The translations under genes were made by a program, and so were the position numbers. A stretch of 64,000 nucleotides of DNA from Acutalibacteraceae bacterium (GTDB lineage: Bacteria > Bacillota > Clostridia > Oscillospirales > Acutalibacteraceae): NCBI GenBank assembly GCA_045642725.1, contig JAZUJJ010000105.1, positions 5,584 through 69,583 of the forward strand, in the 5' to 3' direction. Under the pieces are notes generated by a model, which had not been told where the DNA came from, searched no databases, and was given only the letters and a program-made list of their open reading frames with translations. This document shows positions 20,601 through 51,183 of the stretch, piece by piece (positions within the stretch are counted from its first letter, which is position 1; the number at the start of each line of letters is the position of its first letter).

Positions 20601-22229
20601 ATGCTAAAAAAGAATGACATCATTCCGCTTAAAATCGAAAACTGCGGCCTTGACGGCAGCGGAATCGGCCGCCACGAGGGCATGGCGATTTTTGTGCCCT
20701 GCGCGGCAAAGGGTGACGAAATAAACGCCCGTATTCTTAAGGTCAAAAAGACTTACGCCTATGCAAAAATCGAAGAAATAACAAAGCCTTCCGCTCAAAG
20801 AACGCAGGCGCTTTGTCCCGTTTTTCTTAAATGCGGAGGCTGTTCCTTCGGCCATATAAAATACGAAGCCGAAACAAAAATCAAAGAGGACCATGTTAAG
20901 GAGTGCTTTCGCCGTATCGGCGGCCTTGAGCCGCAATTTGAGAGCATAACCGTTGCCGAAAAGATTTACGGTTACAGAAACAAGGCTCAGTTTCCCGTTG
21001 AAATCAATGGCGATGAAATAAAAATCGGTTTTTATTCAAGCCATACCCACAGGGTCGTTCATTGCCCTGACTGCGCCTTGCAGCCGCCTGAATTTTCCGT
21101 TATTTTAAGAGCATTTGAACAATATATAAGAGAAAATAAAATAACCTCTTACGATGAAACCACCGGAAAAGGCCTGCTCAGACATATTTATATCCGCAAG
21201 GGTACAAAAAGCGGAGAAATAATGGTTTGCCCTGTCATAAACGCAGACAGACTTCCCGATGAAAAAGGGCTTGTTTCCCGGCTTCTCGCCGCCTGTGATA
21301 AAATCACCGATATTGAGGTTAACATCAATAAGGAAAACACCAATGTGATTATGGGCAAAAAGTGCCGCACCCTTTACGGTAAAGGCTATATTGAGGATAT
21401 TCTCTGCGGCCTGCGTTTCCGCCTGTCACCGCTTTCGTTTTATCAGGTGAACAGAGATCAGGCCGAAAAGCTTTATTCAAAAGCCGCCGAATATGCCGGA
21501 CTTACGGGCACGGAAAATGTGCTTGATCTTTACTGCGGCACGGGAACCATCGGGCTTTCCATGGCAAGAAATGCGGGAACGGTAACAGGCGTTGAAATTA
21601 TACCCGCAGCTATTGAAGACGCGAAAATAAACGCAGAAGCAAACGGAATAAAGAATGCAAGGTTTATCTGCGGCGATGCCGCAGATGCGGCCTCGGAGCT
21701 TGAAAAGGACGGCATTGCACCCGATGTGATTATTCTTGACCCGCCGCGTAAGGGCTGCGCAAAGGAATTGCTTGAAACCGCAGTCCGCATGAGCCCGGAA
21801 AGAATAGTTTACGTTTCCTGCGACCCCGCAACCCTCGCAAGGGACTGCGCCATTCTCACACAGCTCGGCTATACCGTAAAAAAAGTTGCCCCGACGGAAA
21901 TGTTTCCGCGCACAGGGCATGTTGAGAGTGTTGTTCTTTTAGTCAAACTTCCGCCGGATGATGTAGTCAACATAGAGCTTGATCTGACAAAGCTGCCGGT
22001 GTCAATCCACGACGGTGATGCAACATATGATGAAATCAAGAAATATGTTCTTTCTCACCACGGCCTGAAAGTATCATCTCTTTATATCTCACAGATTAAA
22101 CGTAAATATGGATTAAAAGTAACAGAAGCATATAACAAACCCAAATCCGAAAACTCCCGCCAACCCCAATGCCCGCCGGAGAAAGAGAAGGCGATTACAG
22201 AGGCGTTGAAATATTTTAAGATGATATAG
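20601..22229 (+). CDS. rlmD: 23S rRNA (uracil-1939-C5)-methyltransferase with about 95-aa foreign C-terminal extension
   Basis: TRAM domain, CPVFLKCGGC Fe-S motif, LDPPRKG, YVSCDPATLARD, MFPRTGHVE; extension ATYDEIKKY..SSLYISQIKRKYG..QCPPEKEKAI. Confidence 0.95.
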   Translation: MLKKNDIIPLKIENCGLDGSGIGRHEGMAIFVPCAAKGDEINARILKVKKTYAYAKIEEITKPSAQRTQALCPVFLKCGGCSFGHIKYEAETKIKEDHVKECFRRIGGLEPQFESITVAEKIYGYRNKAQFPVEINGDEIKIGFYSSHTHRVVHCPDCALQPPEFSVILRAFEQYIRENKITSYDETTGKGLLRHIYIRKGTKSGEIMVCPVINADRLPDEKGLVSRLLAACDKITDIEVNINKENTNVIMGKKCRTLYGKGYIEDILCGLRFRLSPLSFYQVNRDQAEKLYSKAAEYAGLTGTENVLDLYCGTGTIGLSMARNAGTVTGVEIIPAAIEDAKINAEANGIKNARFICGDAADAASELEKDGIAPDVIILDPPRKGCAKELLETAVRMSPERIVYVSCDPATLARDCAILTQLGYTVKKVAPTEMFPRTGHVESVVLLVKLPPDDVVNIELDLTKLPVSIHDGDATYDEIKKYVLSHHGLKVSSLYISQIKRKYGLKVTEAYNKPKSENSRQPQCPPEKEKAITEALKYFKMI

Positions 22230-22275
22230 GTAGAAGATGTACTAAATAATAACAGGAAATATGGAGAGGTAAATT

Positions 22276-24066
22276 ATGGAGCAAATATTTAGTAATACTA
22301 CGCTGACCGTAAATCAGCTGATTGAAAAAATAGATACAGGAGAACTTGGCCTCCCAGAATTGCAGCGCCCTTTCATTTGGAAAGACTCAAAGGTGCGTGA
22401 TCTGTTCGATTCCATGATGCGTGGTTATCCGATTGGATATCTGATGCTGTGGGAGTGCCCGGAGCTGGAAAAGAAAAAGACCATAGGCGTTGATCCGCAT
22501 AGTTACAGTGCACCGAAGGAAGTTATTATTGACGGACAACAGAGACTTACCTCACTGTATGCCGTTATGAAAGGTAAGAAAGTCATAAATTCAAACTACT
22601 CTGAGCGGAACATCGTTATTTCCTACAACCCGCTTCAGAACAAATTTGAAGTTGGCTATCAGGCTACTAAGAAAGATCCGGAGTGGATTTATAACATCAG
22701 CGACCTTTTCACAACCACAAGCTCGCGTAAGTTTATCAATGCCTTTATTGACAACTTGGCAGAATCTCGCAAAGCTAAAGGAGAAGAACTGACTGACGAG
22801 GAAGAAGATACTATCTCCAATAACATCGACGAGGTGGCAAATCTCAGCAAACACATTCTGCCGGTATTTGAGATAAAAGCAAATGCCGAGGAAGAAGATG
22901 TGTCCGAAATCTTTGTGCGCGTCAATTCTGGTGGTGTATCACTGAAACAGAACGACTTTATTCTGACATTGCTTTCTCTGTATTGGGATGAAGGGCGTAA
23001 GCAAATTGAACAATTCAGCATGGAATCGACCTACCCGGCCAAGGACAAGGTTACTTCCTACAATCAGATCACCGAGGTATCCGCGCAAGATATTATCCGC
23101 GTTGTTATGGCATATGCCTTTGACAGAGCGCGTCTGAAATATGGATATAAGCTCTTACGCGGTGCCGATTTTGATAAGAAAGGTGTTATTGACCTTGAGT
23201 TGCGAGACCAGCGTTTTGATGAGCTCAAAGAAAAGTTGCCGGATGTTATCAATGTTCATAACTGGCATGAATTCCTGAAAGCTATTCTGAATGCGGGGTA
23301 CTTATCCGGAGATATGATTTTGTCTGGAAACGCGATTTACTACACCTATGCTTTCTATCTGATTGCAAAATATCGTTTTAACGCTTCCTACAATGACAAT
23401 ATGCATCTCACATCACTGTGGTTTTTCTATGCGTCGCTGGTTTCTTTATATACCGGGTCGTTTGAATCGACAGTAGAAAACCACCTCAATTCCATCAAGG
23501 AACTGAAAACGCTGGATGAGTATAAAAGCTTTATTTTATCCAGAGTGGATGAGCGCTTGACCAACGACTACTTCGACATTACCTTGCTCGGTTCTGAGGG
23601 CTTAGCCGTCTCCGGACGAGGCAACAATGCATGGAATGCTTATGTTGCATCCTTGAACATTCTTGATGCAAAAATACTGTTCTCAAAGAGCAATCTGTTG
23701 GTCGCAAAACTGTTTGAACCCGGAACAGACGGAAAACGCAAGTCGCTGGAGAAACATCACTTATTCCCGAAGGCTTATCTAAAGACGCTTGGCTATAATG
23801 ATTCAAAAATCAACCAGATGGCAAACTACGCTTACATCGATTGGAAGGATAATATGGAAATCCTTGATGAAGCTCCGTCTATTTATTACCCGGTCGTTTG
23901 CGCAGGAAAGACCGAGGAGCAGATTCTTACTATGGAAAAAGAAAACGCTCTACCGCACGGCTGGGAGAAAATGACTTACGAAGACTTCCTCGTTGAGCGG
24001 CGTAAGTTGATGGCGGCAAAAATTAAAGCGGCCTTTGAGATTCTCAAGAAGAACGTGACAGGGTGA
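22276..24066 (+). CDS. GmrSD-like DUF262 + DUF1524 nuclease (putative type IV modification-dependent restriction)
   Basis: LPELQRPFIW, IIDGQQRLTSL, IFVRVNSGG (DUF262); EKHHLFP..INQMANY (DUF1524/HNH-like). Confidence 0.85.
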   Translation: MEQIFSNTTLTVNQLIEKIDTGELGLPELQRPFIWKDSKVRDLFDSMMRGYPIGYLMLWECPELEKKKTIGVDPHSYSAPKEVIIDGQQRLTSLYAVMKGKKVINSNYSERNIVISYNPLQNKFEVGYQATKKDPEWIYNISDLFTTTSSRKFINAFIDNLAESRKAKGEELTDEEEDTISNNIDEVANLSKHILPVFEIKANAEEEDVSEIFVRVNSGGVSLKQNDFILTLLSLYWDEGRKQIEQFSMESTYPAKDKVTSYNQITEVSAQDIIRVVMAYAFDRARLKYGYKLLRGADFDKKGVIDLELRDQRFDELKEKLPDVINVHNWHEFLKAILNAGYLSGDMILSGNAIYYTYAFYLIAKYRFNASYNDNMHLTSLWFFYASLVSLYTGSFESTVENHLNSIKELKTLDEYKSFILSRVDERLTNDYFDITLLGSEGLAVSGRGNNAWNAYVASLNILDAKILFSKSNLLVAKLFEPGTDGKRKSLEKHHLFPKAYLKTLGYNDSKINQMANYAYIDWKDNMEILDEAPSIYYPVVCAGKTEEQILTMEKENALPHGWEKMTYEDFLVERRKLMAAKIKAAFEILKKNVTG

Positions 24067-24109
24067 AAAGCGATATTACAACTATGACGCTAAAACCAGA
24101 GGTAATTAA

Positions 24110-25144
24110 ATGAAGAATTTGTTTATCGATACAAATGTATGGCTATCGCTATATCATTTTACAAACGATGATCTTGCACAGTTTAGTAAACTCAAAGACC
24201 TCATAGGCTCTGAAATTCGGCTCTTTGTGCCTCAACAAGTCAGCGATGAAATTAGCAGAAATCGTGAGGCGAAATTGAAAGATGCTTTTAAAATGTTTGA
24301 ATTGAAAAGCATTCAATTCCCGGCATTCTGCAAAGCTTATGAGGAATACGAGTCTTTTAGTAAAGATTACGTGAGCATTTTATCAAGATATAAACAGTGG
24401 AAAAAGAAAATAGACGCAGATATTCTAAGCGAATCTTTACCTGCCGATATCATCATTACTGATTTTCTGGAACTTACAGAAACGATTTCTACAGAAGAAT
24501 ATGTAGATGCTGCCTATATGCGGTATCGAATAGGTAATCCTCCGGGAAAAGGTAACAAGTATGGTGACGCTGTTAATTGGGAGTGTCTTCTTCATGTTGT
24601 CCCGGATGGAGAAGATCTATACATAATTAGCACGGATAAAGATTATCGTTCCGAACTCTCAGATAATGAATTTAATCCGTTTTTGAAAAAAGAATGGGAA
24701 CAGAAAAAAGGGTCCAAAATTGTTTTTTATAGAAACCTTGTACCGTTTCTAAATGAACATATTAAAGATGTTCAGCTAAAAACGGAGCAAGAAAAGCAGG
24801 AACTTATCAAAAAACTATCTGATAGCTGTAACTTTGAAACTACCCATGGCCTTATTACAATGCTTGGAAAACATACGGGCTGGACAGAATCACAGATTGA
24901 AGAAATGTGTTCCATTGCTGAAGAAAATACGCAAGTTGCATGGATTCTTGGGGACCCAGATGTGCAATCATTTTACAGTAGATTATTATCAAAGATAAAT
25001 TACGAGGAGTTACCGGATTGTGCAACAAAACGCACGATGGAAAAACTCTTTGGTGATGCAATTGCAGCAGAAGCAGAAGCTAATGCAAGATCAGATTTTG
25101 AAGCTGACAGAGACGAAGCTTACGAAGAATACTATAAGCACTAA
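24110..25144 (+). CDS. PIN-like domain protein (DUF4935/PIN_8 type)
   Basis: LFIDTNVWL, GDAVNWECLL, ISTDKDY acidic PIN motifs. Confidence 0.8.
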   Translation: MKNLFIDTNVWLSLYHFTNDDLAQFSKLKDLIGSEIRLFVPQQVSDEISRNREAKLKDAFKMFELKSIQFPAFCKAYEEYESFSKDYVSILSRYKQWKKKIDADILSESLPADIIITDFLELTETISTEEYVDAAYMRYRIGNPPGKGNKYGDAVNWECLLHVVPDGEDLYIISTDKDYRSELSDNEFNPFLKKEWEQKKGSKIVFYRNLVPFLNEHIKDVQLKTEQEKQELIKKLSDSCNFETTHGLITMLGKHTGWTESQIEEMCSIAEENTQVAWILGDPDVQSFYSRLLSKINYEELPDCATKRTMEKLFGDAIAAEAEANARSDFEADRDEAYEEYYKH

Positions 25145-25164
25145 TTAAAAAAAGGGTCGGGTGC

Positions 25165-25555
25165 ATGGCACCGTTCACGGGAACATGTCACCGTGGACTT
25201 GTTACCTGAATGTACGGGCAGGGTTGAGACGATGGCGATCTTGACACATTTTCGCTGCGGGTATTATATAGTAGCGCGAGGTGTTGGTAGACCTGTTCCC
25301 GCGAACACACAAGGTTTAGGCGCCGAAATAGATGTCGCCTGATTTGGCAGTTGATATGTTTCCGCGTACACGGCAAAAATCTGACATCAATCTCGGCCTG
25401 TCGAGCCATGTAGAAACTGTGGCGTTGATGTTGAGAACAAAAGCCGGTGGATATTGACCAATACGACATTGGCAGAAATAAAGGCCACCTATGACAAAAT
25501 CAAAACCTTTGTTTGGAAATATGAGGAAGTGTAGGTGCTGTCATTGGATATTAAA
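25165..25555 (+). pseudogene. Cluster of decayed rlmD 3'-end fragments (att-like scars) plus decayed C-terminal extension
   Basis: Translates as VDLLPECTGRVETMAIL (25193), VDLFPRT (25287), VDMFPRT (25350), HVETVALM (25407), KATYDKIKTFV (25481), *VLSLDI (25532). Confidence 0.8.
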
Positions 25556-25627
25556 CATCAGTTACCATATTTCTTTAACAAAGATGTTTAATAAGAGTTG
25601 AGTGGGAATAATACAGTAATATTTTGA

Positions 25628-25660
25628 TTCCTTGTCGGATTGTTCCGACAAGGAATTTTT
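25628..25660 (+). terminator. Rho-independent terminator
   Basis: TTCCTTGTCGGA-TTGT-TCCGACAAGGAA then TTTTT. Confidence 0.85.
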
Positions 25661-25742
25661 CTCCTTTGCAAAGCATAGAAAATTTTTACCAGACCATTCT
25701 GATGTGACGGTTACGGAAAAGTTGATTGAATAACTCAACAAC

Positions 25743-25771
25743 TTGACATAAATTACTCAATATGATATAGT
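25743..25771 (+). promoter_or_regulatory. Sigma-A promoter of the radical SAM operon
   Basis: TTGACA-17-TATAGT with extended TG. Confidence 0.85.
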
Positions 25772-25830
25772 ATATTGAATAATTGGGATAGAATGTATAT
25801 TTTTAATAAAAAAGAAAAGATGATTAATAG

Positions 25831-26226
25831 ATGAGGTTCTATTTTGGACTTTGGTGCATTTCAATATTGGCGGTTTTTTCGTCAGTTGTATATTTTACAA
25901 TTTCGTTGCTTAACGGAAATATGCCGAGTGGAAATGTTTGTTATATATTTTTGGCTCAGGTAATTCTATTTTCGGCTTCATGTTATAAAATGAGATTTGC
26001 CGAGGGATATACATTATTTCATTGTGTAATTTTTGTGTTTATTTGTAAATCAAAAGGACTTAAGGTTGATAACTGCCCCAAAAAATATATTCTTGAAACC
26101 GTAATGCCTGAAATAAAAATTTTAGCTTCAAAGTTCTATTTTTCTAAAGATCTGACCGAACTGCAATTATATTCGATGATTAAACGAGGTAACTCATTTA
26201 TCAGAGGAAAAAAGGCAGAGAAATAA
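25831..26226 (+). CDS. Hypothetical membrane protein (131 aa)
   Basis: First ORF after the promoter; hydrophobic N-terminal half. Confidence 0.6.
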   Translation: MRFYFGLWCISILAVFSSVVYFTISLLNGNMPSGNVCYIFLAQVILFSASCYKMRFAEGYTLFHCVIFVFICKSKGLKVDNCPKKYILETVMPEIKILASKFYFSKDLTELQLYSMIKRGNSFIRGKKAEK

Positions 26227-26235
26227 GGTGTTCAG

Positions 26236-27027
26236 TTGATGATATATGAAGTGAAAATACTTATCTCGTTTTTGATTTGTATATTGTTTTTTTCGCTTTA
26301 CGGTAGGAAGTTCGGCTTACCGTTAATACAATCTGCCGTTATTTCTTCTTTGGCCTGTGAAGTTTTGACTGTTGTCGGAGAGGTGTTCTATAATTTCAAT
26401 ATACATGATGAGTATTTATACCGTTTCAATAAATATACTTTGGCAATGATAATTTCAGGCTTACTTGTTGCTGTAACTCAGACATGTATATTAAAATTCA
26501 ATTTATTGCATTCTTTTGATTTCTTTGCACCGCTTCCGCTGTTGATTTATTCAATAGGACATACCGGATGTTATTTCGAGGGATGTTGCCACAGTTTCAA
26601 ATTCAGTGATAATTCGATAATAAATAAACTATTTCCTTTTTTTATAAAAGACGGAATCTTTTTTCAACAACTTCTGGAATGCATTTTTACTTTTATTTTG
26701 TTCTTGATAATAGTTTTACTTACCAGGAAAAAGAAGTATGATTTTGGTGGAAAAATGTTTCCTGTAATGATGATGTTATTCGGATTACATCTTTTTTTGT
26801 GGAACATAATCAGAGATGATGAAAAAATTATTAAAATATGTAAAATTGCCAATGCACAAAGTTCTGAATTCGGAGGGCCCGCTTATTTGGGAATTTCCGA
26901 TACGTCAATAAAGGCAATATTATTCATTATTTTAGGTGTTGTTTTATACATTACGATATTTATATATAATAGCAGCAGAGCCAAGCGGCAAAGAAATGGT
27001 TCCCATGAACAGGAGGGAAAAATTTGA
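26236..27027 (+). CDS. Lgt (prolipoprotein diacylglyceryl transferase)-like membrane protein with degenerate catalytic residues
   Basis: IGHTGCYFEGCC ~ GRxGCFxxGCC; FQQLLE ~ HPTQLYE; FGLHLFLWNIIRDD ~ YGxxRFxxEFFR. Confidence 0.7.
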   Translation: MMIYEVKILISFLICILFFSLYGRKFGLPLIQSAVISSLACEVLTVVGEVFYNFNIHDEYLYRFNKYTLAMIISGLLVAVTQTCILKFNLLHSFDFFAPLPLLIYSIGHTGCYFEGCCHSFKFSDNSIINKLFPFFIKDGIFFQQLLECIFTFILFLIIVLLTRKKKYDFGGKMFPVMMMLFGLHLFLWNIIRDDEKIIKICKIANAQSSEFGGPAYLGISDTSIKAILFIILGVVLYITIFIYNSSRAKRQRNGSHEQEGKI

Positions 27028-28940
27028 AAAATATATATTTTGTACAGGCAAATGTTTTATACGGCAATACTATTTATTTGCCGTATGCTGCAGGAGCAAT
27101 TGCATCTTATGCTTTTCAAAATGAAACGATAAAGGCAGAATATTCACTGAAAAGAATTATTTACTATCGTGAAAATGTTGATGAAGCTTTAGAATCTTTT
27201 GAAGAACCGTTTTTGATTGCATTTTCATGTTACATATGGAATTATGAATATAACAAAGCTCTTGCAAAAAAAGTGAAAGAGAAATGGCCTCACTGTAAAA
27301 TAGTTTTCGGAGGGCATAATGTTTCATCAAATTCACCGGAACTTTTAAATGAGCTTTCTTATGTTGATTTCCTTCTTCATGAAGAAGGAGAGGTGCCTTT
27401 TGAAAGATTACTTCTTACATTGATTGGAAAATACTCTTTTTCTGATGTTCCGAATTTATCATACAGAGATGAATCGGGTTCAATTAAAAAGAATGAGAAC
27501 CAAATATTTGATGTTGCAGATTTTCCGTCACCTTATCAGACAGGTATATTTGATGAAATAATAAACAGTACAGATTTGGTTTTGAACGGTATGTTTGAAA
27601 CAAACAGAGGCTGTCCGTTTGGCTGTGCATTTTGTGATTGGGGTATATATAAATCAAAAGTAAGACAGTTTCCTGAGGAACGAATAAAAAAAGATATAGA
27701 GTGGTTTGTTAAACATAAGATTGAATTTTGTACCTGTGCTGATGCAAATTTTGGTATTCTTGAAAGAGATAAAAAAATTGCCGATTGGATAATTGAGTCA
27801 AAAAAGAAATATGGTTACCCTTCAAAAATACAATTTTGCTATACCAAAGGCAGAAATGATGTGGTTTTTGACCTCAATAAAAGAATGAATGAAGTCGGGC
27901 TCAGTAAAGGAGCAACACTTTCTTTACAGACTTTTTCAAATACTGCATTAAAAAATATAGGCAGAAGTAATCTTTCTTATGAGCAGTTTTGTTCAGAAGT
28001 AAAAAGATATAACGAATCAGATATTCCCACATATACGGAAATAATTCTCGGCATGCCCGGTGAAACCTATGAAAGCTACTGTGAGGGACACAATAAGCTG
28101 TTAAAAGCCGGTCAGCACAATTCAGTTATTGTTTTTAATTGTGAGTTGTTGATGAATTCACGAATGGGTCAACCGGAAACAATAGAGGCATTTAAAATAA
28201 AGAGCTCAAAAACACCGTATAAACAGCATCATTGTGTTCCGCTTAATGATGATGTATGTGAATATTCTCATATTGTAACTTCAACATACAGCATGTCAAC
28301 TGAGGATTGGATTAAATCATGTTTATTTACGGTTTGTGTCGGATGCTTCCATAATCTCGGTTTGCTTCAGTGCTTTGCAATATATATGTATCAGGAACGC
28401 GGAATGGAATATTCTGATTTTTATAAATCACTTTTGTCATGGATATTTTCTGATCCGGATACATTGTGCGGAACGATATTTACAGATATACAGCATAGAT
28501 TGAAGCTTATAAGTGAAGAAAAGGGAGATTGGAAATATGTTAATCCCGTTTTCGGTGAAATAACATGGCCTTATGAAGAAGGCGCTTTCCTGAATATCAT
28601 TTTGGAAAAAGAAAGATTCTATAATGAAATAGTTTCATTTTTGGATTCTCTGAATATTCCCGATAAAATATATGCTGACTTAATTCAGTTTCAAAAGTTT
28701 ACTGTTAAGCATCCAATGCAAAAGAACATAAGATTTGAAACAAATTATAATTTAGCAGATTATTTTGTCAGTGCTTTAAACGGAGAAAAGATCGAATTAA
28801 CAGAAAAGCCAACCGTTTTGACGATGGAGGATAATAATATACCCGAGAAATGGGAAGATTATGCAAGAGAAATGGTTTGGTATGGTAAACGCGGCAGTAA
28901 AATAATAAATATCCGCTCGTTTAATATTTCTTATAAATAA
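27024..28940 (+). CDS. B12-binding radical SAM enzyme, paralogue 1
   Basis: N-terminal B12-binding domain (FSCYIWN, VFGGHN, EEGE) and ETNRGCPFGCAFCDWG; TTG start overlapping the previous stop. Confidence 0.92.
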   Translation: MKNIYFVQANVLYGNTIYLPYAAGAIASYAFQNETIKAEYSLKRIIYYRENVDEALESFEEPFLIAFSCYIWNYEYNKALAKKVKEKWPHCKIVFGGHNVSSNSPELLNELSYVDFLLHEEGEVPFERLLLTLIGKYSFSDVPNLSYRDESGSIKKNENQIFDVADFPSPYQTGIFDEIINSTDLVLNGMFETNRGCPFGCAFCDWGIYKSKVRQFPEERIKKDIEWFVKHKIEFCTCADANFGILERDKKIADWIIESKKKYGYPSKIQFCYTKGRNDVVFDLNKRMNEVGLSKGATLSLQTFSNTALKNIGRSNLSYEQFCSEVKRYNESDIPTYTEIILGMPGETYESYCEGHNKLLKAGQHNSVIVFNCELLMNSRMGQPETIEAFKIKSSKTPYKQHHCVPLNDDVCEYSHIVTSTYSMSTEDWIKSCLFTVCVGCFHNLGLLQCFAIYMYQERGMEYSDFYKSLLSWIFSDPDTLCGTIFTDIQHRLKLISEEKGDWKYVNPVFGEITWPYEEGAFLNIILEKERFYNEIVSFLDSLNIPDKIYADLIQFQKFTVKHPMQKNIRFETNYNLADYFVSALNGEKIELTEKPTVLTMEDNNIPEKWEDYAREMVWYGKRGSKIINIRSFNISYK

Positions 28941-28954
28941 AGATGGTGTGAAAT

Positions 28955-30871
28955 ATGTCCTGTGAAAAAAAGAAAGTATATCTTGTTCAGGTATCTGCTG
29001 CTTTCGGTGGAACAAGCTTTATCCCTTATACGGTAGGGTGCATTGCAGCCTATGCATGGTCAAAGGAAAATATAAAGCAGGATTATTTTCTTCCTGAATT
29101 TATTTATAAAAGAGATGATCTTGAAGAAGTTGTTAATTCTATTTCAGATCCTTTTATTGTGGGATTTTCGACTTATGTTTGGAATTTTGAATACAACTTA
29201 AAGCTTGCCGAAAGAATTAAAAGTGAGTATAAGAATTGTTATATTGTTTTTGGCGGCCATGATATTCCTCTTGACGGTTCAATGCTTAATGAATATCGGT
29301 TTATTGATTTCCTTATGCATGACGAAGGCGAAATTGCATTTGCTGAGCTTTTAACGACTTTAAGTCAGGGCGGAAAAATTGAAAATGTCAGAAACATTTC
29401 ATTCAGGAATTCTGATGGCGTAGTAACCAATCCTATTATCAGTTCAGAAACAATAGATTTTCCTTCTCCTTATTCAAGCGGAATGTTTGACAATCTTGTT
29501 GGGGAAAACGGAAAAGATTTTGTTGCAACATTTGAAACAAATCGCGGATGTCCTTTTAAGTGTGCTTACTGTGATTGGGATACAATAAAGGATGGATTAC
29601 GCCAATTCCCAATGGAAAAAATAAAATCTGAAATTGATTGGATAGCTGAGCATAAAATAGAGTTTACATGGTTGATCGATGGTAATTTCGGAATTCTGCC
29701 AAGAGACGAGGAAATCATTGATTATTTGATAAAGGTAAAAAGTGAAACGGGCTATCCCAAAAGAACGAATCTTTTCTTTACCAAGAATGATCCGGAGCTT
29801 GTTTTCAGACTTAATAATAAGCTTGATAAGGCCGGCTTGAGCAAAGGCGCATGTATTTCTTTTCAGAGTATGTCACCTTCAGTTCTTAAAAACATTGGGC
29901 GTCAGAATATTTCCAATGAAAAGTTCCGTGAGCTTATGACGATGTATAATAAGAATAATATTCCGACTTTTTCTGAAATAATCGTTGGGCTGCCGGGAGA
30001 AACCTATGAGAGCTTTTGCGATGGTATAGGTCAGCTTCTTGAAGCCGGGCAGCATTATTCGTTTTATGTTTATCCATGTGAATTACTGAAAAATTCAATT
30101 ATGGCTCAGCCGGAATACCTTAATCAGTTCGGTATAAAATATGTTATAACTGCTCTGAACCAACATCACCGTGAAGTGCCTAAGGATGGTATAGAAGAGT
30201 ATTCACGGATTGTTGTCGGAACAAATTCAATGACACCGAATATGTGGGTCAAATCGTGCTTGTTCGGAATCTGCGTAAGAACTTTTCATAGTCTTGGATT
30301 ACTTCAATATTTTGCTTTGTATCTTCGCCATGAAAAAGATATTGCTTATGTAAGCTTTTATAATGATCTTCTTGAATGGATGCTGAATAACAGAGAAAGT
30401 GTTTGCGGTAAAGTTTTTAATGATTTGAAAGACAGGTACGAGAAAATTATCAGTGGTTCAGGTTCTTTTTTATATGCGTTTCCGAAATACGGTGATGTGG
30501 TTTGGCCATTTGAAGAAGGAGCTTTTCTGGAAATAATTTCTGATTTCGATTTGTTTTTTGATGAAATAAAAAGCTTTTTATCAAAATATGATATTGATGA
30601 CGGCATCAGGTGTGAATTACTTGAATATCAGAAAAGTATGATAAAAATTCCGGCCAAGAAATCTTTTTCACTTAAATTGAATTATGATTTTCCGACATTT
30701 GTCAGAAAGATTCTGACAAATGAAGCTGATTCATTGCAGCAAAAAAATACAGTTGTTTCTTTTACCGGTTCCGACATACCGAAAGATTGGGAGACTTTTG
30801 CAAGAGAAGTTGTATGGTATGGACGAAAGGGCGGAAAAACTTTACTTGAAACCGAGGTAAGCATTTCTTGA
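28955..30871 (+). CDS. B12-binding radical SAM enzyme, paralogue 2
   Basis: FSTYVWN, VFGGHD, DEGE; ETNRGCPFKCAYCDWD. Confidence 0.92.
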   Translation: MSCEKKKVYLVQVSAAFGGTSFIPYTVGCIAAYAWSKENIKQDYFLPEFIYKRDDLEEVVNSISDPFIVGFSTYVWNFEYNLKLAERIKSEYKNCYIVFGGHDIPLDGSMLNEYRFIDFLMHDEGEIAFAELLTTLSQGGKIENVRNISFRNSDGVVTNPIISSETIDFPSPYSSGMFDNLVGENGKDFVATFETNRGCPFKCAYCDWDTIKDGLRQFPMEKIKSEIDWIAEHKIEFTWLIDGNFGILPRDEEIIDYLIKVKSETGYPKRTNLFFTKNDPELVFRLNNKLDKAGLSKGACISFQSMSPSVLKNIGRQNISNEKFRELMTMYNKNNIPTFSEIIVGLPGETYESFCDGIGQLLEAGQHYSFYVYPCELLKNSIMAQPEYLNQFGIKYVITALNQHHREVPKDGIEEYSRIVVGTNSMTPNMWVKSCLFGICVRTFHSLGLLQYFALYLRHEKDIAYVSFYNDLLEWMLNNRESVCGKVFNDLKDRYEKIISGSGSFLYAFPKYGDVVWPFEEGAFLEIISDFDLFFDEIKSFLSKYDIDDGIRCELLEYQKSMIKIPAKKSFSLKLNYDFPTFVRKILTNEADSLQQKNTVVSFTGSDIPKDWETFAREVVWYGRKGGKTLLETEVSIS

Positions 30872-31632
30872 AAAAGTCATTTTATGACATCAGTAATTTG
30901 TATTCAGAATTCAAATCAGTATCTGTTGTTATTTGCATTACTGATGAAACCGATAGCTTAAGAACAAATCTTGATAAACTTATTTTGTCATGTAATGCGG
31001 AGGATTTGGTTCAGATTTTACTTTGTACTCATGAAAGGACTGCTGTTCAGACAATAAAAATTGCAGAGGAATACAAGCAGAGATATCCTTTTGTTGAAAT
31101 ATATTCACAGCAAATCAAATCATCAGGTTATATTTTACTTAAAGAGACATTGCCTCTTGTTAAAGGAACTCATGTAATATATGCTGCGGCAGATAATGCT
31201 ACAGATTTATCTGTGGTTGGTGAGTTTGTTTCAAAGCAAAAAGAAAATTCAAATTGTGTTCCCTGCGTTTCGAGATGGATAAACGGAGGAAAATTAGTTG
31301 GATACGGGTTCATTCGCAAATTACTGAGCCATCTTTTTCAGCGTTTTATCTCTGTGCTGTATAACAATAAGTACACAGAATTTTCTTTTCCTTATCAGAT
31401 TGCTTCGGTCAGATTATATGACGCTTTGATTTTAAATGAAAACGGTGTGTTTTCATTTTTTGAAGCCAAAATGAAAATGCTGAAACTGAATGTTGCCTTT
31501 TCAGAACTGCCAATGACATGGCGTGACAGAACAGACGGAAGAAAACATTTCAGACCATTGAGGGTCTTGGCTTATTTCAGAATTGCTTTTAAAGTTCGGT
31601 TTATGAAAATGAAAGAGTGTATTAATATTTAA
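30868..31632 (+). CDS. GT2 glycosyltransferase, polyprenol-phosphate (DPM-synthase-like) type
   Basis: GTHVIYAAADNATD, SRWINGG, ELPMTWRDRTDG; the DxD motif is degenerate. Confidence 0.75.
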   Translation: MKKSFYDISNLYSEFKSVSVVICITDETDSLRTNLDKLILSCNAEDLVQILLCTHERTAVQTIKIAEEYKQRYPFVEIYSQQIKSSGYILLKETLPLVKGTHVIYAAADNATDLSVVGEFVSKQKENSNCVPCVSRWINGGKLVGYGFIRKLLSHLFQRFISVLYNNKYTEFSFPYQIASVRLYDALILNENGVFSFFEAKMKMLKLNVAFSELPMTWRDRTDGRKHFRPLRVLAYFRIAFKVRFMKMKECINI

Positions 31633-31649
31633 CAAAGAAGGGAATTGAA

Positions 31650-33569
31650 ATGAAAAAGGTTTATTTTGTTCAACCGGGCAATTGCATCGGGAATAATGTG
31701 TATTTACCATATTCTGTTGGTTCAATAGCTGCGTATGCTTGGAGTAACGAGTCAATAAAAGAAACTTATGAACTGGCTGATTTGCTTTTTCTTTTTGAAG
31801 ATATCGACAAGCAGATTCAGTCAATGGATTCTCCTTTTCTGGTCGGCTTTTCCTGCTATATCTGGAATTATGAATATATTTTAAGGTTTGCAGAAAAATT
31901 AAAGAAAGCATATCCGGAATGTTATATTCTTTTTGGCGGACACAATGTTAATTCTTATAATGCAAAACAGTTAGAAGAATTTCCGTTTGTTGATTTTTTA
32001 ATTCATGATGAAGGTGAAATACCGTTCCGCGATTTGCTTCTTGCATTAAAAAACGGTACTGATTTTTCAAAAATAACTAATTTTTCATACAGAGATCAAA
32101 ACGGAAACATATGCAAAAACGAATCCGTAATATATGATGTCGATGATCTTCCTTCCCCTTACAGTATGGGGATCTTTGATAAAATAATGAAAAATTATGA
32201 TTATAATTTTTCTGTTATACTTGAAACTAACAGAGGCTGTCCTTATGGCTGCTCATACTGTGACTGGGGAATATACAAGTCAAAGATCCGCTGCTTCCCG
32301 TTGGAAAGGGTGTATTCCGATCTTCAATGGTTTTCCGATAACAAGATAGACTATTGCCTGTGCTCCGATGCGAATTTCGGTATCATAAAAAGAGATATGG
32401 AAATCGCAGAAAAGCTTATTGAAATCAGGAACAAATCGGGATTTCCCAATAAAGTTAATTTCTGCACTGCCAAGAGCGGAGAAAACTTCGTGTATGAAAT
32501 CAGCAAAAAGCTTAATGATGCAGGTGTTTTGAAAAGCGCTTCTTTATCAATACAGACACTTAATCCTGATGCATTAAAAAATATCGGACGCACAAATTTC
32601 ACAAAAGAGAAATTTCAGGAAATGGATCAGATGTACAGGAAAGTCGGAGTTTCAACTCTTGCAGAGCTTATACTCGGACTGCCCGGCGAAACGTTGAAAA
32701 GCTTTTGCGAAAATATCTGTTTGTTTTTTGAGGTTGGACATCATATACCCATCAGCGTATATAATTGCCAGCTTTTGATGAATTCAAAAATGTCTCAACC
32801 CGATTATATAAAACGGCACGGAATCAAATCGGTAAAAATGCCGCTCTCATTTCATACCAACAAAGAGGAACAGGACAAATATCCGGAATACATTGATATT
32901 GTTATTGAAACAAATACGCTTAGTAAAGAGGATTGGGTTTCGGCAAATTTGTTTTATTTTCTCACCTATGCTTTTCACGGAATGGGATTGATGCAATTTT
33001 TTGCCCAATATATACATTATGAGCTTAATGTATCATACTATGATTTTTATTCAAAGCTGTATGAATATGTTTTTGAAAATAAGAATACGGTTGCCTTTTC
33101 AGTCTTTAATAAAATACGAAATATTCATTTAGAACTGCTTCAGGGAAAAGGATCATATGGATGCGAATTGGATTGGGCCGGCGATGTAATATGGCCGTTT
33201 ACGGAATTTGCATATTTAAGTATTGCTCATGATAAAGATTTGTTTTACGAGGAAATGAAACCGTTTTTAAAACAATTCAACATTAAAGATGATATATTTG
33301 AGGAACTGTTTCTTTATCAGAAGAGTATGGTTAAATATCCGGGCCTGAAGGGATTTGAAATAAATCTGAAAAAAGATTGGCATACATATTTTTGCCACAT
33401 TTTTGATAATGTTTATATTCCTTTACCGGAATTGGAAAATGTTTTGACTGTTTCGTGTCCTAATACTCCTGATGATTGGAAAACATTTTCAAGAGATATG
33501 GTTTGGTATGGCAGACGCGAAAGAAGAATGCTTTGTGTAAATCAAGCAGTTGTTAAATATATTTATTAA
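31650..33569 (+). CDS. B12-binding radical SAM enzyme, paralogue 3
   Basis: FSCYIWN, LFGGHN, DEGE; ETNRGCPYGCSYCDWG. Confidence 0.92.
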   Translation: MKKVYFVQPGNCIGNNVYLPYSVGSIAAYAWSNESIKETYELADLLFLFEDIDKQIQSMDSPFLVGFSCYIWNYEYILRFAEKLKKAYPECYILFGGHNVNSYNAKQLEEFPFVDFLIHDEGEIPFRDLLLALKNGTDFSKITNFSYRDQNGNICKNESVIYDVDDLPSPYSMGIFDKIMKNYDYNFSVILETNRGCPYGCSYCDWGIYKSKIRCFPLERVYSDLQWFSDNKIDYCLCSDANFGIIKRDMEIAEKLIEIRNKSGFPNKVNFCTAKSGENFVYEISKKLNDAGVLKSASLSIQTLNPDALKNIGRTNFTKEKFQEMDQMYRKVGVSTLAELILGLPGETLKSFCENICLFFEVGHHIPISVYNCQLLMNSKMSQPDYIKRHGIKSVKMPLSFHTNKEEQDKYPEYIDIVIETNTLSKEDWVSANLFYFLTYAFHGMGLMQFFAQYIHYELNVSYYDFYSKLYEYVFENKNTVAFSVFNKIRNIHLELLQGKGSYGCELDWAGDVIWPFTEFAYLSIAHDKDLFYEEMKPFLKQFNIKDDIFEELFLYQKSMVKYPGLKGFEINLKKDWHTYFCHIFDNVYIPLPELENVLTVSCPNTPDDWKTFSRDMVWYGRRERRMLCVNQAVVKYIY

Positions 33570-33585
33570 GCTATAAGGAGATGAG

Positions 33586-36069
33586 ATGCGCTTGAAGTTT
33601 TGGGATTATATTATACTTACCGCTGCAAATAATAACCAAGCTGAAGCTTTCAGGCAGCATCTTATTTCTAAACAGAGAGATGGTCAGATAGACGATGCAA
33701 CATGTTGCATCGTCATTTCTGATGGTGACAGAAGTATTGGTTCGGGATGCGCTTTCCTTAAGGCTTTAGAAGAAATATATTGCATTGAAGGCACTCATGT
33801 ATTCCCAAAGGATAAAAAAATACTTTTAATAAATTCGGGGGGGGAAAGCAGAAGAATACCTCAGTATTCTGTTTGCGGTAAGGCCTTCGCTCCGTGGCCA
33901 TTTGATAATTGTGATTTTTTTGATAAAATTTTAGAATCATTCAATCATTTGACATCTTTTTTTGATGGTGGAATGATTATATCCACAAGCGATATCCTTT
34001 TGGATACAAATATTGATTTCCATTTTTTGTATAATAACACGGCTTTTGCTGTTAAAACCGTTGCTGAAAATGGTGTTAACCACGGAGTGTTTAAATGTGA
34101 AGGCTCAAAGGTGATTGATTTTTTACATAAAAAGCCGATAGATGTTCTGAAAAATCAAGGTGCTGTTAATTCGGCGGGAGAAGTATTATTAGATACAGGA
34201 GCTGTTTATTTTACACCGACTTGTTTGGAACGAATATACAACACATTATGCTGCCATAAAAAAATAAATACGGAATTTGCAGATGTTAAATTAAATTTTT
34301 ACAGTGATTTTTTGTATCCGTTGGCAACTAAAGGAAATTTGAATGATTATTTAAGTCAGTCCGGGGAGACAGAAGTAAATGATCGCTTGATTCAAGCAAG
34401 GGGAAAAATATACGATTGTCTCTTTAATCAGGAAGAATTGTTCGTTAACATCTTGCCTGATCAGAGATTTATTCATATCGGAACTACAAAAGAAGTACTT
34501 GAATTGTTCACAGATTTGAATGGTTATAAATCCTATAACAGCATTATCGATTCTAAAGCTGAAATAGGTAAAGGAACATACATTGAAAATTGTATTATAA
34601 GGAACGGCTGTTCAATCGGTAACAACTGTTTTATTTCCTCCGCAGAACTTGCTGATGTCAATATTCCCGATAATACCGTTGTCCATTGCATCAGATTGAA
34701 CAACCGGAAATATACGGCAAGAGTTTTTTCTGTTGACGGATTTGATAAAACTCGTGATTTTTGGAGTAAAAAGCAGTACGGGGTTTACGATTCACGTTTG
34801 GAGGCTGTCAAGGCATCTTTGAAAGGAATAAATGGTTGTGTCAGTTTAGAATCAGGCTTTTCGGATGCGGATTTTACAGAACCGTTTGAATGGAAAAGTT
34901 GGATTGCATTTTTATCCGATTTTAATTCATATGAAAAAATCAGTAATCAGATAGTAAAAAATACTATAAAAAAAATAGATTATTCAGAGCGTGTTGCCCT
35001 GAATAAAAGCACTTCAGTATGCAGATTACCGGTCAGAATAAATTTTGGAGGAACTTGGTCGGATGCAGCTCCTTATTGTATTGATTTTGGAGGAGCTGTT
35101 TTGAATGCGACTGTGTCTATTGATGGTAATCTGCCTATAAGCGCAGCAGTAAAAAGAATAAATAAAGATCGTATTATTTTACGCTGCGAAGATATGAATT
35201 CAGAGCATTCGTTTTTTGATGTTCAAAGCTTGACGGATTTTAGTAATGTGAATGATGTTTTTGCTTTGCATAAGGCAGCTTTGGTTGTAAGTGGTATAAT
35301 TCCTTTATCAGCAAAATGCAACATGAATGAGATACTGAAAAAACTCGGAGGAGGATTTGTGCTGTCAACTTGTGCTGAAAATCTTCCAAAGGGATCTGGA
35401 TTGGGAACGAGCAGTCTTTTATTAAGTGCCGCTATAAAAGCATTGTATGATATTACCGGAAGGGAGTTAAGCGAAAAAGCACTCTTTGAAAAAGTTTTTT
35501 GTGCTGAGCAATTAATGAAAACCGGTGGCGGTTGGCAAGACCAGGTTGGTGGCTTTATTAATGGATTTAAATTGATTACCACAGATAAAGGAATAGATCA
35601 AAATATAAAATACGAATTATTTAAACCCAGCGAACAGATCCTGAATTTATTAAAGCATAAAGCGGTTTTAATTTACACCGGAGAACGTTTTTATGGCAGA
35701 TTTATTCTCAGCGATATTATGAAAAGATGTTCTTACGGTGATGGAGAAACTTTAGAAACAATATGTGAATTAAAAAAGCTTGCATTATTTGAAAGGGAAG
35801 TATTTGAAAACGGTAATGCTGAAATGTTTATCAACTGTATAAACAGGCATTCGGAATTATTGAAAAAGCTTTCCGGCAAAATTGAAAATGAATCGTATCA
35901 AAAAATTACAAACAAATTTTCCGAATTGATTGAATGTTGTTGCATTTGCGGTGCCGGAGGAGGAGGATTTGCATTTTCAATATTAAAAAAAGATGTTGAA
36001 CGTGAATGGTTTATTGAAATGGCCCATAAAAATAATATTAAGATATACAAACCGGAATTTATTCTGTAA
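33586..36069 (+). CDS. fkp: Bifunctional L-fucokinase / fucose-1-phosphate guanylyltransferase-like protein
   Basis: LLINSGGESRRIPQYSVCGKAF, NHGVF, LDTG, FIHIGTT (pyrophosphorylase); LPVRINFGGTWSD, PKGSGLGTSS, TGGGWQDQ, CGAGGGGF (GHMP kinase). Confidence 0.85.
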   Translation: MRLKFWDYIILTAANNNQAEAFRQHLISKQRDGQIDDATCCIVISDGDRSIGSGCAFLKALEEIYCIEGTHVFPKDKKILLINSGGESRRIPQYSVCGKAFAPWPFDNCDFFDKILESFNHLTSFFDGGMIISTSDILLDTNIDFHFLYNNTAFAVKTVAENGVNHGVFKCEGSKVIDFLHKKPIDVLKNQGAVNSAGEVLLDTGAVYFTPTCLERIYNTLCCHKKINTEFADVKLNFYSDFLYPLATKGNLNDYLSQSGETEVNDRLIQARGKIYDCLFNQEELFVNILPDQRFIHIGTTKEVLELFTDLNGYKSYNSIIDSKAEIGKGTYIENCIIRNGCSIGNNCFISSAELADVNIPDNTVVHCIRLNNRKYTARVFSVDGFDKTRDFWSKKQYGVYDSRLEAVKASLKGINGCVSLESGFSDADFTEPFEWKSWIAFLSDFNSYEKISNQIVKNTIKKIDYSERVALNKSTSVCRLPVRINFGGTWSDAAPYCIDFGGAVLNATVSIDGNLPISAAVKRINKDRIILRCEDMNSEHSFFDVQSLTDFSNVNDVFALHKAALVVSGIIPLSAKCNMNEILKKLGGGFVLSTCAENLPKGSGLGTSSLLLSAAIKALYDITGRELSEKALFEKVFCAEQLMKTGGGWQDQVGGFINGFKLITTDKGIDQNIKYELFKPSEQILNLLKHKAVLIYTGERFYGRFILSDIMKRCSYGDGETLETICELKKLALFEREVFENGNAEMFINCINRHSELLKKLSGKIENESYQKITNKFSELIECCCICGAGGGGFAFSILKKDVEREWFIEMAHKNNIKIYKPEFIL

Positions 36070-36095
36070 CAAGTCTTAATTATAAGCTGTGAGGC

Positions 36096-37019
36096 GTGAA
36101 AATGAAAGCAAAGAAAATAGCAAAAAGAGTGGTACTTACTCTTGTTTCTCTTATTCTTGCGGGGGTAGTCATTATGACGGGCATTATGTTTTTCCACTAT
36201 CCGCATTACAGAAAAAATAAAAGGCAGCTTGAGCTTAAAGGCCCTGATACCGCAGGTGAAATAAGAGTTATGAGCTGTAATGTACGCTGTATCAATCCTC
36301 TTGATACCGGGAAAAAGAGCTGGTTTTACAGAGCTGATTTACTGCTTAAGGGCATAGAAAATGAATGCCCCGGTGTAATCGGTTTTCAGGAAGTGACAAA
36401 ATGGCAGTACAATTATCTGACCGCAGCACTGCCTCAGTTTGATTCGGTGATAACCTACCGTGATAAGATGATCAATTCTGAGGGCTGTCCCGTTTTTTAC
36501 AGAACCGATATGTATAAGCTCATTGATAAGGGCTCCTTCTGGCTTTCGGAAACCCCCGAAAAAATGAGTAAGGATTGGGGAGCAGCCTGCTACAGAATTT
36601 GCAGCTATGTTATTCTTGAAGAGCTCGGTACGGCAAAACAATTCGTGGTGTTTAATGTTCACCTTGACCATATCAGCGACGAAGCGAGAATAAACGGAAT
36701 AAATGTTGTTCTTGATAAAATCAAAGCTTTCGGTTCGCTGCCGTCGGTAATAATGGGAGATTTCAATGCGGAAGAGGATTCGGAAACCTATGCGGCGGTA
36801 ACCGAAAACTTCCTTGATGCAAAATATCAGACCGAAAACACCATGACAAGCTGTACCTATCAGAATTGGGGCGCCGGACTTGACAATAACTGTATTGATT
36901 ATTTCATGATTTCCAAGGACGGCTTTGATGTAAAGGAATACAAGGTGCTTACGGATACCTATGACGGAGTCTATGCCAGTGACCACTTCCAGCTGCTCAC
37001 CGTTCTTAATCTGAAGTAA
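36096..37019 (+). CDS. Endonuclease/exonuclease/phosphatase (EEP) family protein with N-terminal membrane anchor
   Basis: MSCNVR, GFQEV, NVHLD, MGDFN, IDYF, SDH. Confidence 0.9.
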   Translation: MKMKAKKIAKRVVLTLVSLILAGVVIMTGIMFFHYPHYRKNKRQLELKGPDTAGEIRVMSCNVRCINPLDTGKKSWFYRADLLLKGIENECPGVIGFQEVTKWQYNYLTAALPQFDSVITYRDKMINSEGCPVFYRTDMYKLIDKGSFWLSETPEKMSKDWGAACYRICSYVILEELGTAKQFVVFNVHLDHISDEARINGINVVLDKIKAFGSLPSVIMGDFNAEEDSETYAAVTENFLDAKYQTENTMTSCTYQNWGAGLDNNCIDYFMISKDGFDVKEYKVLTDTYDGVYASDHFQLLTVLNLK

Positions 37020-37051
37020 CTTCTGAAGCAACTCTATAATTGAATAAAATC

Positions 37052-37086
37052 AAGAGGTGACTTCCCGTTCGGAAGTCACCTCTTTT
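37052..37086. terminator. Bidirectional terminator
   Basis: AAGAGGTGACTTCC-CGTTC-GGAAGTCACCTCTT-TT. Confidence 0.88.
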
Positions 37087-37116
37087 ATGCTGTTTGTAAT
37101 TATTTATTTAACCTTA

Positions 37117-38487
37117 TCAGTCGTAATCTCTTATCCATTTGAAGATTGTGCCGATCGAGGTTGAGAAAAGATTAACGATGGTGTAAATCAAATCAATGTT
37201 GCCGATAAGCTCTTTGAACTGAGCGATAAGATTCTTGAATCCGTCAGAGGAGAAGAGAGCCTTGATCTGCTCAATGGTTGAAAGCTTGAGCTCGTTCTTT
37301 TCGGTGGAAATTGTAAGCTTGTAATCGTCGCTTCTGTAGTTTGAGCCGGCGGAAATCTTGATGTAATATGTGCCCGGTTCAAAAGCGTTGAAGTTGATGG
37401 TTGCAGCTTGAGTTGCGGATACATTGCCTTCAAAAACATTTACAACGCCGTCGGCAGAGGGCTTGAATACTTCAACCTTCCATACGGCATCGGTGGTGGA
37501 AAGTGCGGCGTTGATAACTACCTTGTAGGTGTTGCTGAAGGTCTTTGTGTTTTCGGTGGTTCTGTTTTCTGCATGAACGATTTTGAACATATCAACATCG
37601 TCTTTTGCGGTGATAGCGCCGAAGAGTAAGCCGTCTGCCTTGATTTCGTTGGCATAAGCAACAACGTCGTTATATTCGGCTTCGGTAGAAGAATCGGCCT
37701 TTGCAAAAATTCTGAGGCAATAGCTGCCGCAGCTGCCGTCAACGCCGCTTACCTTTACATAATATGTGCCGGCATTGGAACCGATTTCGGAGCCGTAAAC
37801 AAGGTCCTTGGATGATTCGGTGTAATCAAAGGAAGCAAATATTTTTTCTTCTTTGCCGACAAGCTGAATGACCTCAAATCTGAAATTGCCTCTTTTGCCA
37901 TCGGTCTTTTTGCAGTCAATGCTGAAAAGGCCCTGCTTTGCGGTAAATGAATAATAGTCTACATCGCCTTTGCCGACAGCGCCGTAATACCATGTGTCAA
38001 GAGAGGCAGCGGTGGCGGTTGATGTGGTGTTGTTGCTTTCGATTTCTGTTTTTGCATCGGCAACGGGAGCAACAGCAATAAGGGTTACGCTGTATTTGTC
38101 TTCAACGAAAGCGGAACCGGCGGCAACCTTTACATAATAGGTACCGATACCGACATAAAAATCGGGAGAAACCGCTTCAACATCGTTACCGTCAACGTTG
38201 AAAGAAAGAACATCCTTTTTGTCGGGGCCGGAAACGGTTACGGTGTAATAGGGGATTTCCGAGCCTGTGCCGGGGGTGGTGAACTTAACCTTTGCGAAGC
38301 CTGCTGCCGTGAAAGCGAAGGAATAGCAGTCAACCTCATCAAGAGCGGAAAGGTTGCCTTCGGATGCAGTGCCGACTGTTCCGGCAACAGCGGAATCCTC
38401 GGGGTCAGCCGCATAAGCGACAGTGAGTGCACCAAATGCCATCAGAACTGCGAGTAGAACTGAAAGAGTGCGCTTGAAAGTTTTCAT
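37117..38487 (-). CDS. Exported protein with three PPC-like beta-sandwich repeats and amphipathic C-terminal tail
   Basis: Signal peptide; repeats DEVDCYSF, EIESNNT..GDVDYYSF, EAEYND..DDVDMFKI; GGAGG RBS supports start 38487. Confidence 0.7.
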   Translation of the reverse strand: MKTFKRTLSVLLAVLMAFGALTVAYAADPEDSAVAGTVGTASEGNLSALDEVDCYSFAFTAAGFAKVKFTTPGTGSEIPYYTVTVSGPDKKDVLSFNVDGNDVEAVSPDFYVGIGTYYVKVAAGSAFVEDKYSVTLIAVAPVADAKTEIESNNTTSTATAASLDTWYYGAVGKGDVDYYSFTAKQGLFSIDCKKTDGKRGNFRFEVIQLVGKEEKIFASFDYTESSKDLVYGSEIGSNAGTYYVKVSGVDGSCGSYCLRIFAKADSSTEAEYNDVVAYANEIKADGLLFGAITAKDDVDMFKIVHAENRTTENTKTFSNTYKVVINAALSTTDAVWKVEVFKPSADGVVNVFEGNVSATQAATINFNAFEPGTYYIKISAGSNYRSDDYKLTISTEKNELKLSTIEQIKALFSSDGFKNLIAQFKELIGNIDLIYTIVNLFSTSIGTIFKWIRDYD

Positions 38488-38703
38488 TTTTTGTCCTCCA
38501 ATCATAGTTTTTGAGATTAGACTTTTGTATTATAACATACTTTTTTTTATTTTTCAAATTATTTATTCAATAATTTATGAAAAATTCGTAAATTGTCTTT
38601 TCGATATATTTGTGTTTCCTATTGATTTTTTTGCTTTCTTTATGTATTATGTATTTATATTCATACATTGTGCATACAAAGAAATTCGGAAGGAGAATAT
38701 ATT

Positions 38704-51180: not shown

Positions 51181-51183
51181 AAA

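Follow-up and report, generated by a model that had tools for sequence, protein, structure and literature searches.

The window, that is, the whole stretch of 64,000 nucleotides analysed here, belongs to contig C105 (JAZUJJ010000105.1) of an Acutalibacteraceae bacterium. It contains an rlmD gene at 20601–22229 that encodes 542 aa, of which the methyltransferase profile covers the sequence only up to residue 449. The order glgP–CAAX–rlmD upstream of this point is common to the window and its relatives, as judged by synteny. Two genes, a non-coding module and a broken copy of the rlmD extension follow downstream. The features are listed below, with asterisks denoting stop codons and a vertical bar the breakpoint.

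20601–21923, plus strand: host part of rlmD, up to ..EMFPRTGHV (TRAM and U5-methyltransferase; Pfam PF05958 and PF01938)
21924–21925, plus strand: left crossover GA, inside the GAG of HV|E (identity to C119 changes from 59.8% to 92.2% here)
21924–22229, plus strand: left end of the element (attL, P' arm), a 101-codon extension in frame with rlmD
22276–24066, plus strand: cargo gene 1, GmrSD-type (DUF262) nuclease, HEC-05-like (PF03235, 6.4e-34; PADLOC HEC-05, 4e-39, full length)
24110–25144, plus strand: cargo gene 2, PIN_12 domain protein (PF16289, 2.6e-19; partial PADLOC PDC-S34 match)
25150–25412, plus strand: conserved right-end module (P side), non-coding, 263 bp (homology to L125, L113 and C42; core pattern)
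25173–25189, minus strand: inverted DMFP-like motif inside the module (17-nt inverted repeat with 25290–25306, 88% complementary)
25193–25249, plus strand: attB-like repeat 1, VDLLPECTGRVETMAILTH, with the VET motif GGTTGAGACGATGG (VET corresponds to block R2 of the group A modules)
25287–25320, plus strand: attB-like repeat 2, VDLFPRTHKV* (GTT TAG replaces GTT GAG)
25350–25412, plus strand: DMFP repeat 3 and core, CTGACATCAAT..TCGAGCCATGT, up to the crossover (core pattern; nhmmer E=1.4e-17)
25413–25414, plus strand: right crossover GA (homology to L125 and to all group A modules stops exactly here)
25413–25555, plus strand: left end of a further element, preserved as a decayed, cut-off extension, ETVALMLRTKAGGY*..LAEIKATYDKIKTFV.. 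(nhmmer E=1.8e-4; tblastn)
25626–25662, plus strand: intrinsic terminator of the rlmD-cassette transcription unit (14-bp stem, then a T run)

The rlmD insertion site and the left end

Elements of the vanG/ICE-r family target a GA dinucleotide about 10–11 codons before the rumA stop codon; their left end carries a start-less ORF of about 100–115 codons that is fused in frame to rumA, and their recombinase gene spans the right end and is fused to the rumA tail (PMC4120198). Insertion of vanG and ICE-r in tandem has been described (PMC4120198; Srinivasan et al. 2014), and rumA/rlmD is a hotspot for ICEs and prophages in streptococci and Erysipelothrix (PMC7168690, PMC12785378). The window has the target site and the left end of this family: the breakpoint is the GA at 21924–25 within HV|E, after which uninterrupted rlmD genes of relatives continue for 8–12 residues, and the 101-codon extension occupies 21924–22229. 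Both the insertion site and the extension are already known from rumA serine-recombinase elements, and the first-pass annotation had been right to place an rlmD/rumA integration junction here.

The breakpoint is seen most clearly in comparison with a rumA-type paralogue on contig C119 of the same genome, which is 53% identical to the window RlmD overall and 94% identical over the last 97 residues. At the nucleotide level, the identity is 59.8% in the 240 nt 5' of GA, 92.2% from GA to the stop codon, and 48.6% beyond it, which is the random level; homology ends at the stop codon. The cargo 3' of the extension is unlike in the two places, with GmrSD and PIN genes in the window and a 950-aa PrimPol-helicase protein on C119.

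The C119 locus (34773–39107, outside the window) holds a 481-aa rumA-type gene with the same extension (94% at the amino acid level), and the 950-aa protein, which combines PrimPol, helicase and PLD-like parts, gives strong PADLOC PrimPol and PbeA-like matches. Since the same cargo is also found behind the true rlmD in a relative (G005, locus L043), the element family targets both paralogues.

The extension is carried by 16 of the 25 genomes of the genus and by none of 16 genomes from the order's other families. The same extension is present in a Streptococcus suis YS162 record, with partial matches in records of S. gallolyticus '_rum' prophages. At two loci (L040 and L045), it forms the C-terminus of bona fide large serine recombinases (..LRWDKDTTV|ETVCLLSKLNTKHH..), and at L041 and on contig C42 of the present genome, large serine recombinase genes finish with the short RlmD-type tail. 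These two kinds of fusion indicate that large serine recombinases use this crossover.

Two of the relatives' loci are of interest in their own right. At L085 (G019:C70, 4088–5551), rlmD ends in a cut-off extension (..DEPDLTDAEKKAIRQENKKHQSTSE*), which is another decayed left end at the rlmD site. At L040 (G023:C9, 5326–9320), a gene matching PADLOC PDC-S56 (795 bits) and a stub, ..RMSLDNDEHV|ETVCLLSRAI*, lie in this order behind the recombinase–extension fusion. The locus is thus a tandem array, and of the recombinase gene of its downstream element only about 10 codons remain.

A 263-bp right-end module that moves as a block

The cassette, 3,489 bp long, is delimited by the GA dinucleotides at 21924 and 25413, and the GmrSD and PIN genes are the sole genes between them. 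Judged by conjugation and phage genes, both absent, it is not self-transmissible. The first-pass annotation had read the cargo between the arms as defence genes without a recombinase, a reading that is supported here. Homologues of the GmrSD protein with 82–86% identity are common in human-gut metagenome contigs (L127–L204); in 76 of the 80 loci kept from such contigs, the fetched flanks contain no module, rlmD or PIN gene, which implies that the gene circulates in other island types too. Exact-protein look-ups with the rlmD extension and with the GmrSD protein returned no identical record.

The segment at 25150–25412, which closes the cassette, is a single module moving as a block. It aligns to positions 8576–8840 of a human-gut metagenome contig (L125) with 87.2% identity over 266 columns, as against 48% in the 100 nt before the block and 52% in the 60 nt after GA. 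On L125, the module lies behind a GmrSD gene that is 95.6% identical to that of the window at the nucleotide level, and the second gene, the flanks and the upstream region differ. In a horse-gut Clostridia MAG (L113), 90% identity is found to window positions 25290–25423, which represent the module's 3' 134 nt, and the second unit there retains the string THKV*AP.*MSP.LAVD.FPRT. Within the genome itself, 25295–25420 matches C42:49270–49396 with 77% identity (E=6e-22); as this match spans DMFP copies 2 and 3, the spacer and HVE, all of these are parts of one unit. An nhmmer core profile made without this genome detects 25348–25431 (E=1.4e-17), and its only other match in the genome is on C42. 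There, a 1,633-nt stretch with an ORF and its module copy shares 99.7% identity with a locus in another genus of the family (L121); the identity runs to FP-b, and divergence begins inside the module. Near-identical modules with different cargo make up group A, and near-identical cargo plus module is also found in different genera, as in the C42/L121 pair.

Counted from GA, the FP motifs of the window module lie at −60 and −123, the VE motif at −191 and the minus-strand FP motif at −235, which is a typical layout. The VETM motif (25220) and the inverted motif at 25173–25189 lie within the block shared with L125 and match conserved blocks of the group A modules, which are about 250 nt long. The FP and VE pairs in the module resemble whole attB sites.

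We searched for the module family with the core pattern TGTTTCCG-N12-35-TGACATC-N10-16-TCGAGCCAT, which matches 24 species genomes and two IMG/VR viral contigs. The module occurs in other genera of the same family, in further Clostridia including Eisenbergiella, Moryella, Butyricicoccus and Ruminiclostridium, in Bacilli including Ruoffia, Heyndrickxia and Ornithinibacillus, and in Dielma and Lancefieldella rimae; one module-bearing MAG carries the unconfirmed label Cloacimonadota, its locus being almost identical to that of a Clostridium sp. Every module ends in ..TCGAGCCATGT followed by GA-G ACN GTN, that is, HV|E, after which comes either a short RlmD-type tail (e.g. ETVVLMSRVKE*) or the extension. 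The 27 distinct modules contain 51 DMFP-like motifs (GATATGTTYCCG) where shuffled sequences predict 1.2, at offsets from GA of −60 and of −100 or −132, and 31 VET-like motifs (GGTTGAGRCGAT) where 0.9 are expected, at −110, −192/−198 and −240. Nearly all copies of both motifs lie on the same strand, in modules from several phyla. The DMFP- and VET-like repeats are a fixed, intrinsic feature of the module family, and their number, orientation and position are conserved in a wide range of bacteria.

The strings from which the first-pass annotation had started are all in place, namely the inverted motif at 25165–25189, VDLLPECTGRVETMAILTH at 25193, VDLFPRT at 25287, VDMFPRT at 25350 and HVETVALM at 25407, as is the broken copy of the extension, LAEIKATYDKIKTFV..*VLSLDI, from about 25463. 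It had the left arms breaking off immediately behind the Thr codon; this is true of the copy at 25350, which leaves rlmD after ACA CGG, but not of that at 25287, which is colinear through Val and TAG (for GAG). A chance origin of the motifs was ruled out by genome-wide motif counts, profile E-values and shuffles: translated in six frames, the 2.65-Mb genome contains VD[ML]FP.T only 4 times, once in the rlmD paralogue on C119, twice in the window and once on C42.

Whether cargo genes are delimited by arms had been proposed as a check, and the module bounds recombinase-less cargo at rlmD at four loci (L108, which is Lancefieldella rimae ATCC 49626, L113, L115 and L118). Each shows the full layout of rlmD with a replacement short tail, cargo, module and second tail; the cargo measures 1–5 kb and lacks a recombinase, and rlmD is intact. 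L113 carries two such cassettes in tandem. Besides the window's own, GmrSD genes stand beside modules at four loci (five genes), and the other cargo comprises type I HsdR, Mrr with a PD-(D/E)XK nuclease, McrBC (two loci), PvuRts1I-SRA and Fic, so that the genes beside modules are mostly anti-phage. At its left end, the window cassette has a long extension, in contrast to the short tails with which most module cassettes of other loci begin; it might be a hybrid that arose from two elements by deletion.

A different arrangement is found in a Proteiniclasticum MAG (L103, 1187–6344), where a module closes a six-gene run that begins after a fragment of another serine recombinase. Judged by eye, the genes of this run are resistance- or modification-like (MFS transporter, nucleotidyltransferase, hexapeptide acetyltransferase, methyltransferase and GNAT).

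The second element, the recombinases and the origin of the repeats

The extension sequence that follows the second GA covers positions 14–169 of the 312 positions of the model, about half its length, and is like the HVETVVQLSQRKADAYIDI-type extensions. A DNA profile built from extensions at 16 loci of other genomes detects it at 25420–25550 (E=1.8e-4) as the third match in the genome, behind both intact extensions. As this decayed left end adjoins the second GA directly, the locus represents a tandem array with two members. Tandem arrays at this site, which the first-pass annotation had also anticipated, are thus represented both by this junction and by the paired cassettes of L113.

A strong promoter at 25743–25771, with a near-consensus extended −10 element (11/12 matches), lies 80 nt past the terminator and heads an AT-rich radical-SAM/Fkp operon (25831–37019; 30–37% GC). 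The GC content is back at the host level at about 37200, and its profile suggests foreign DNA to about 37100. A search for a right-hand junction near this position found none. The radical-SAM/Fkp operon could be cargo of the second, decayed element. A native rlmD tail (B') was sought downstream in the window and not found, which counts against the cassette reading; synteny gave no right border for the whole island, as the genes 3' of rlmD vary from species to species within the genus.

The region 20601–25900 encodes no recombinase of any type, and PF07508 has no match on contig C105, so that the cassette differs from the vanG/ICE-r family, whose members have a recombinase gene across their right end. 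The first-pass annotation had already noted that such a gene is missing and suggested looking for large serine recombinases elsewhere in the genome. There are three such genes, on C42, C108 and C81, and the one on C42 is an intact enzyme of the rlmD type.

On C42 (49155–52686, minus strand), the recombinase of 557 aa (51013–52686) ends in an RlmD-type tail, ..LCLTDESTL|ETVVLMSRVKE*, and is followed by a 428-aa ORF without a family match and then by the second module copy. An IS transposase gene lies at the end of this contig. This contig may represent the right part that the C119 island lacks.

With a P' arm on the left and the P-side module on the right, both of which stop at GA, and with neither recombinase nor transfer genes, the cassette has the build expected of a non-autonomous element. 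From the GA core, the fusions at the same junction and the intact C42 recombinase adjoining a module cassette, we infer that cassettes of this kind are moved by a large serine recombinase acting in trans, for which the C42 enzyme is a candidate. The P arm of the module is unlike the P arms within the recombinase genes examined in that its TGAC motif lies about 11 nt further from GA, and this difference keeps the match of the C42 enzyme to the module at the level of a candidate. The last 16 codons of the module equal the recombinase tail of L041 in length, and a degraded recombinase 3' end was considered as their source, yet the DNA motifs are about 11 nt apart. In 7 of the 24 module-bearing genomes, no large serine recombinase gene is found, and many module copies may therefore be stranded.

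Taken as a whole, 21924–25414 is probably one recombinase-less rlmD cassette with the module as its right end, followed by a second, decayed element and served by a recombinase in trans. The sequence comparisons establish how the cassette is built, where its two breakpoints lie, that the module moves as a block and is conserved across taxa, and that the cassette carries defence genes but no recombinase. A left module of about 300 bp gives rlmD a new 101-codon C-terminus, and the rlmD extension, the GmrSD gene, the PIN gene and the 263-bp module follow one another in this order. The repeats, built into the module, imitate both halves of the rlmD target and may act as extra binding sites for the recombinase. 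The recombinase of a full-size rlmD-targeting element would then insert, excise and stack the cassette in trans.

The repeats need not be functional today. The right end might be an ancient fossil, derived from accretion and deletion at an ancestral junction, with repeats that are now functionless and carried along with the cargo. All reading frames of the module are broken, the number of repeats varies from 1 to 3 (L108 has one FP), the FP and VE pairs look like whole attB sites, some host genomes have no large serine recombinase, and the C42/L121 pair diverges after FP-b as a mosaic would. A fossil of this kind nevertheless appears rather unlikely to us, as the FP and VE motifs have stayed near consensus while the intervening sequence drifts, their orientation is uniform and their offsets recur, and both edges of the module are sharp across phyla.

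The first-pass annotation itself had proposed that four or more separate att relics were heaped up here by repeated integration and deletion of different donors. The copies do use different synonymous codons, a real second-element junction exists at 25413, and tandem insertion at rumA is documented (PMC4120198). The conclusion drawn from the codons does not follow, since similar motifs in different codons need not imply different donors, and the repeats are intrinsic to one module, so that the chain from different codons to different donors to four events fails. The whole 263-bp block recurs with the same motif order and sharp edges in the unrelated contig L125 (87% identical), its 3' part in L113 shows that it is inherited as a block, and the same layout is found on C42 and in the 27 modules of diverse taxonomic origin. 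The B arm, moreover, cannot be multiplied by conservative attP x attB recombination, and a heap of independent relics is very improbable. A structured RNA or regulatory 3' UTR element in place of a recombination site can be set aside as the least credible option: the module is indeed transcribed with rlmD and the cassette, as the terminator follows only at 25626, and contains inverted repeats, but Rfam gives no family at E<=1 except sub-threshold matches on the terminator, the RNAalifold consensus is weak (−16 kcal/mol) with compensatory change in 0 of 35 pairs and an unfavourable covariation term, and conservation stops exactly at the GA crossover.

Relation to known elements and implications

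The cassette resembles the vanG/ICE-r elements in the GA within the HV|E codon, the in-frame fusion at the left end and the stacking in tandem. It differs from them in that they measure 45–110 kb and carry a recombinase, whereas the cassette measures 3.5 kb, has none, and ends in a non-coding 263-bp repeat module. In the literature searched on rumA/rlmD elements, we found no description of a recombinase-less cassette with such an end module.

Small elements without their own recombinase are known from other systems. SCC and pseudo-SCC elements of staphylococci are serine-recombinase elements at the 3' end of rlmH (orfX) that form composite tandem islands, and Ccr supplied in trans presumably moves those members that have no recombinase. 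The likeness, an analogy only, is that in both cases a gene for an rRNA methyltransferase offers its 3' end as the landing site; the SCC target is rlmH, the enzymes are CcrAB or CcrC, and SCC elements have neither an in-frame swap of the C-terminus nor a multi-repeat end module. The CIMEs of streptococcal ICEs (ICESt1/ICESt3) are small, att-bounded elements without recombination or transfer genes that are accreted beside a full element. The CIMEs known so far depend on tyrosine integrases and lie at other sites (fda, tRNA genes), whereas the ends in the window fit serine-recombinase junctions at rlmD. By analogy, the cassette appears to behave as a non-autonomous derivative comparable to a pseudo-SCC element or a CIME.

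The first-pass annotation had also spoken of an integron-like platform. Like integron cassettes, those described here are small, mostly of one or two genes, co-oriented, without their own recombinase and stacked 3' of a fixed site. The comparison is an analogy and goes no further, as the cassette lacks an IntI tyrosine recombinase, attI and attC hairpins, and ends of its type (about 70–300 bp on the left, 130–260 bp on the right) are unrelated to attC. The chemistry of its junctions is instead consistent with the GA cores of serine recombinases. The broader proposal of the first-pass annotation, in which defence cassettes accumulate at rlmD and the recombinase is encoded in another place, is plausible and has partial support.

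To our knowledge, several target-like repeats in an attachment site fall outside the standard attP/attB picture. It is possible, though we hold this idea only tentatively, that the 130–260-bp module is a portable multi-site end which, together with a left end, makes small gene sets into capturable cassettes. If so, the rlmD-specific serine recombinases of passing ICEs and prophages could capture, stack and swap such cassettes, and the attB-like repeats, unlike ordinary attL or attR sites, would recruit extra recombinase subunits or give fresh landing sites. For defence genes, the system would then play the part of an integron that works with serine recombinases, extending over classes of Firmicutes and Actinobacteria.

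The rlmD/rumA hotspot, known for large resistance ICEs and prophages, thus also harbours miniature cassettes without a recombinase, whose cargo consists mostly of modification-dependent nucleases and other anti-phage genes. The module offers a sequence handle by which defence cassettes next to rlmD can be found in Gram-positive genomes and metagenomes.
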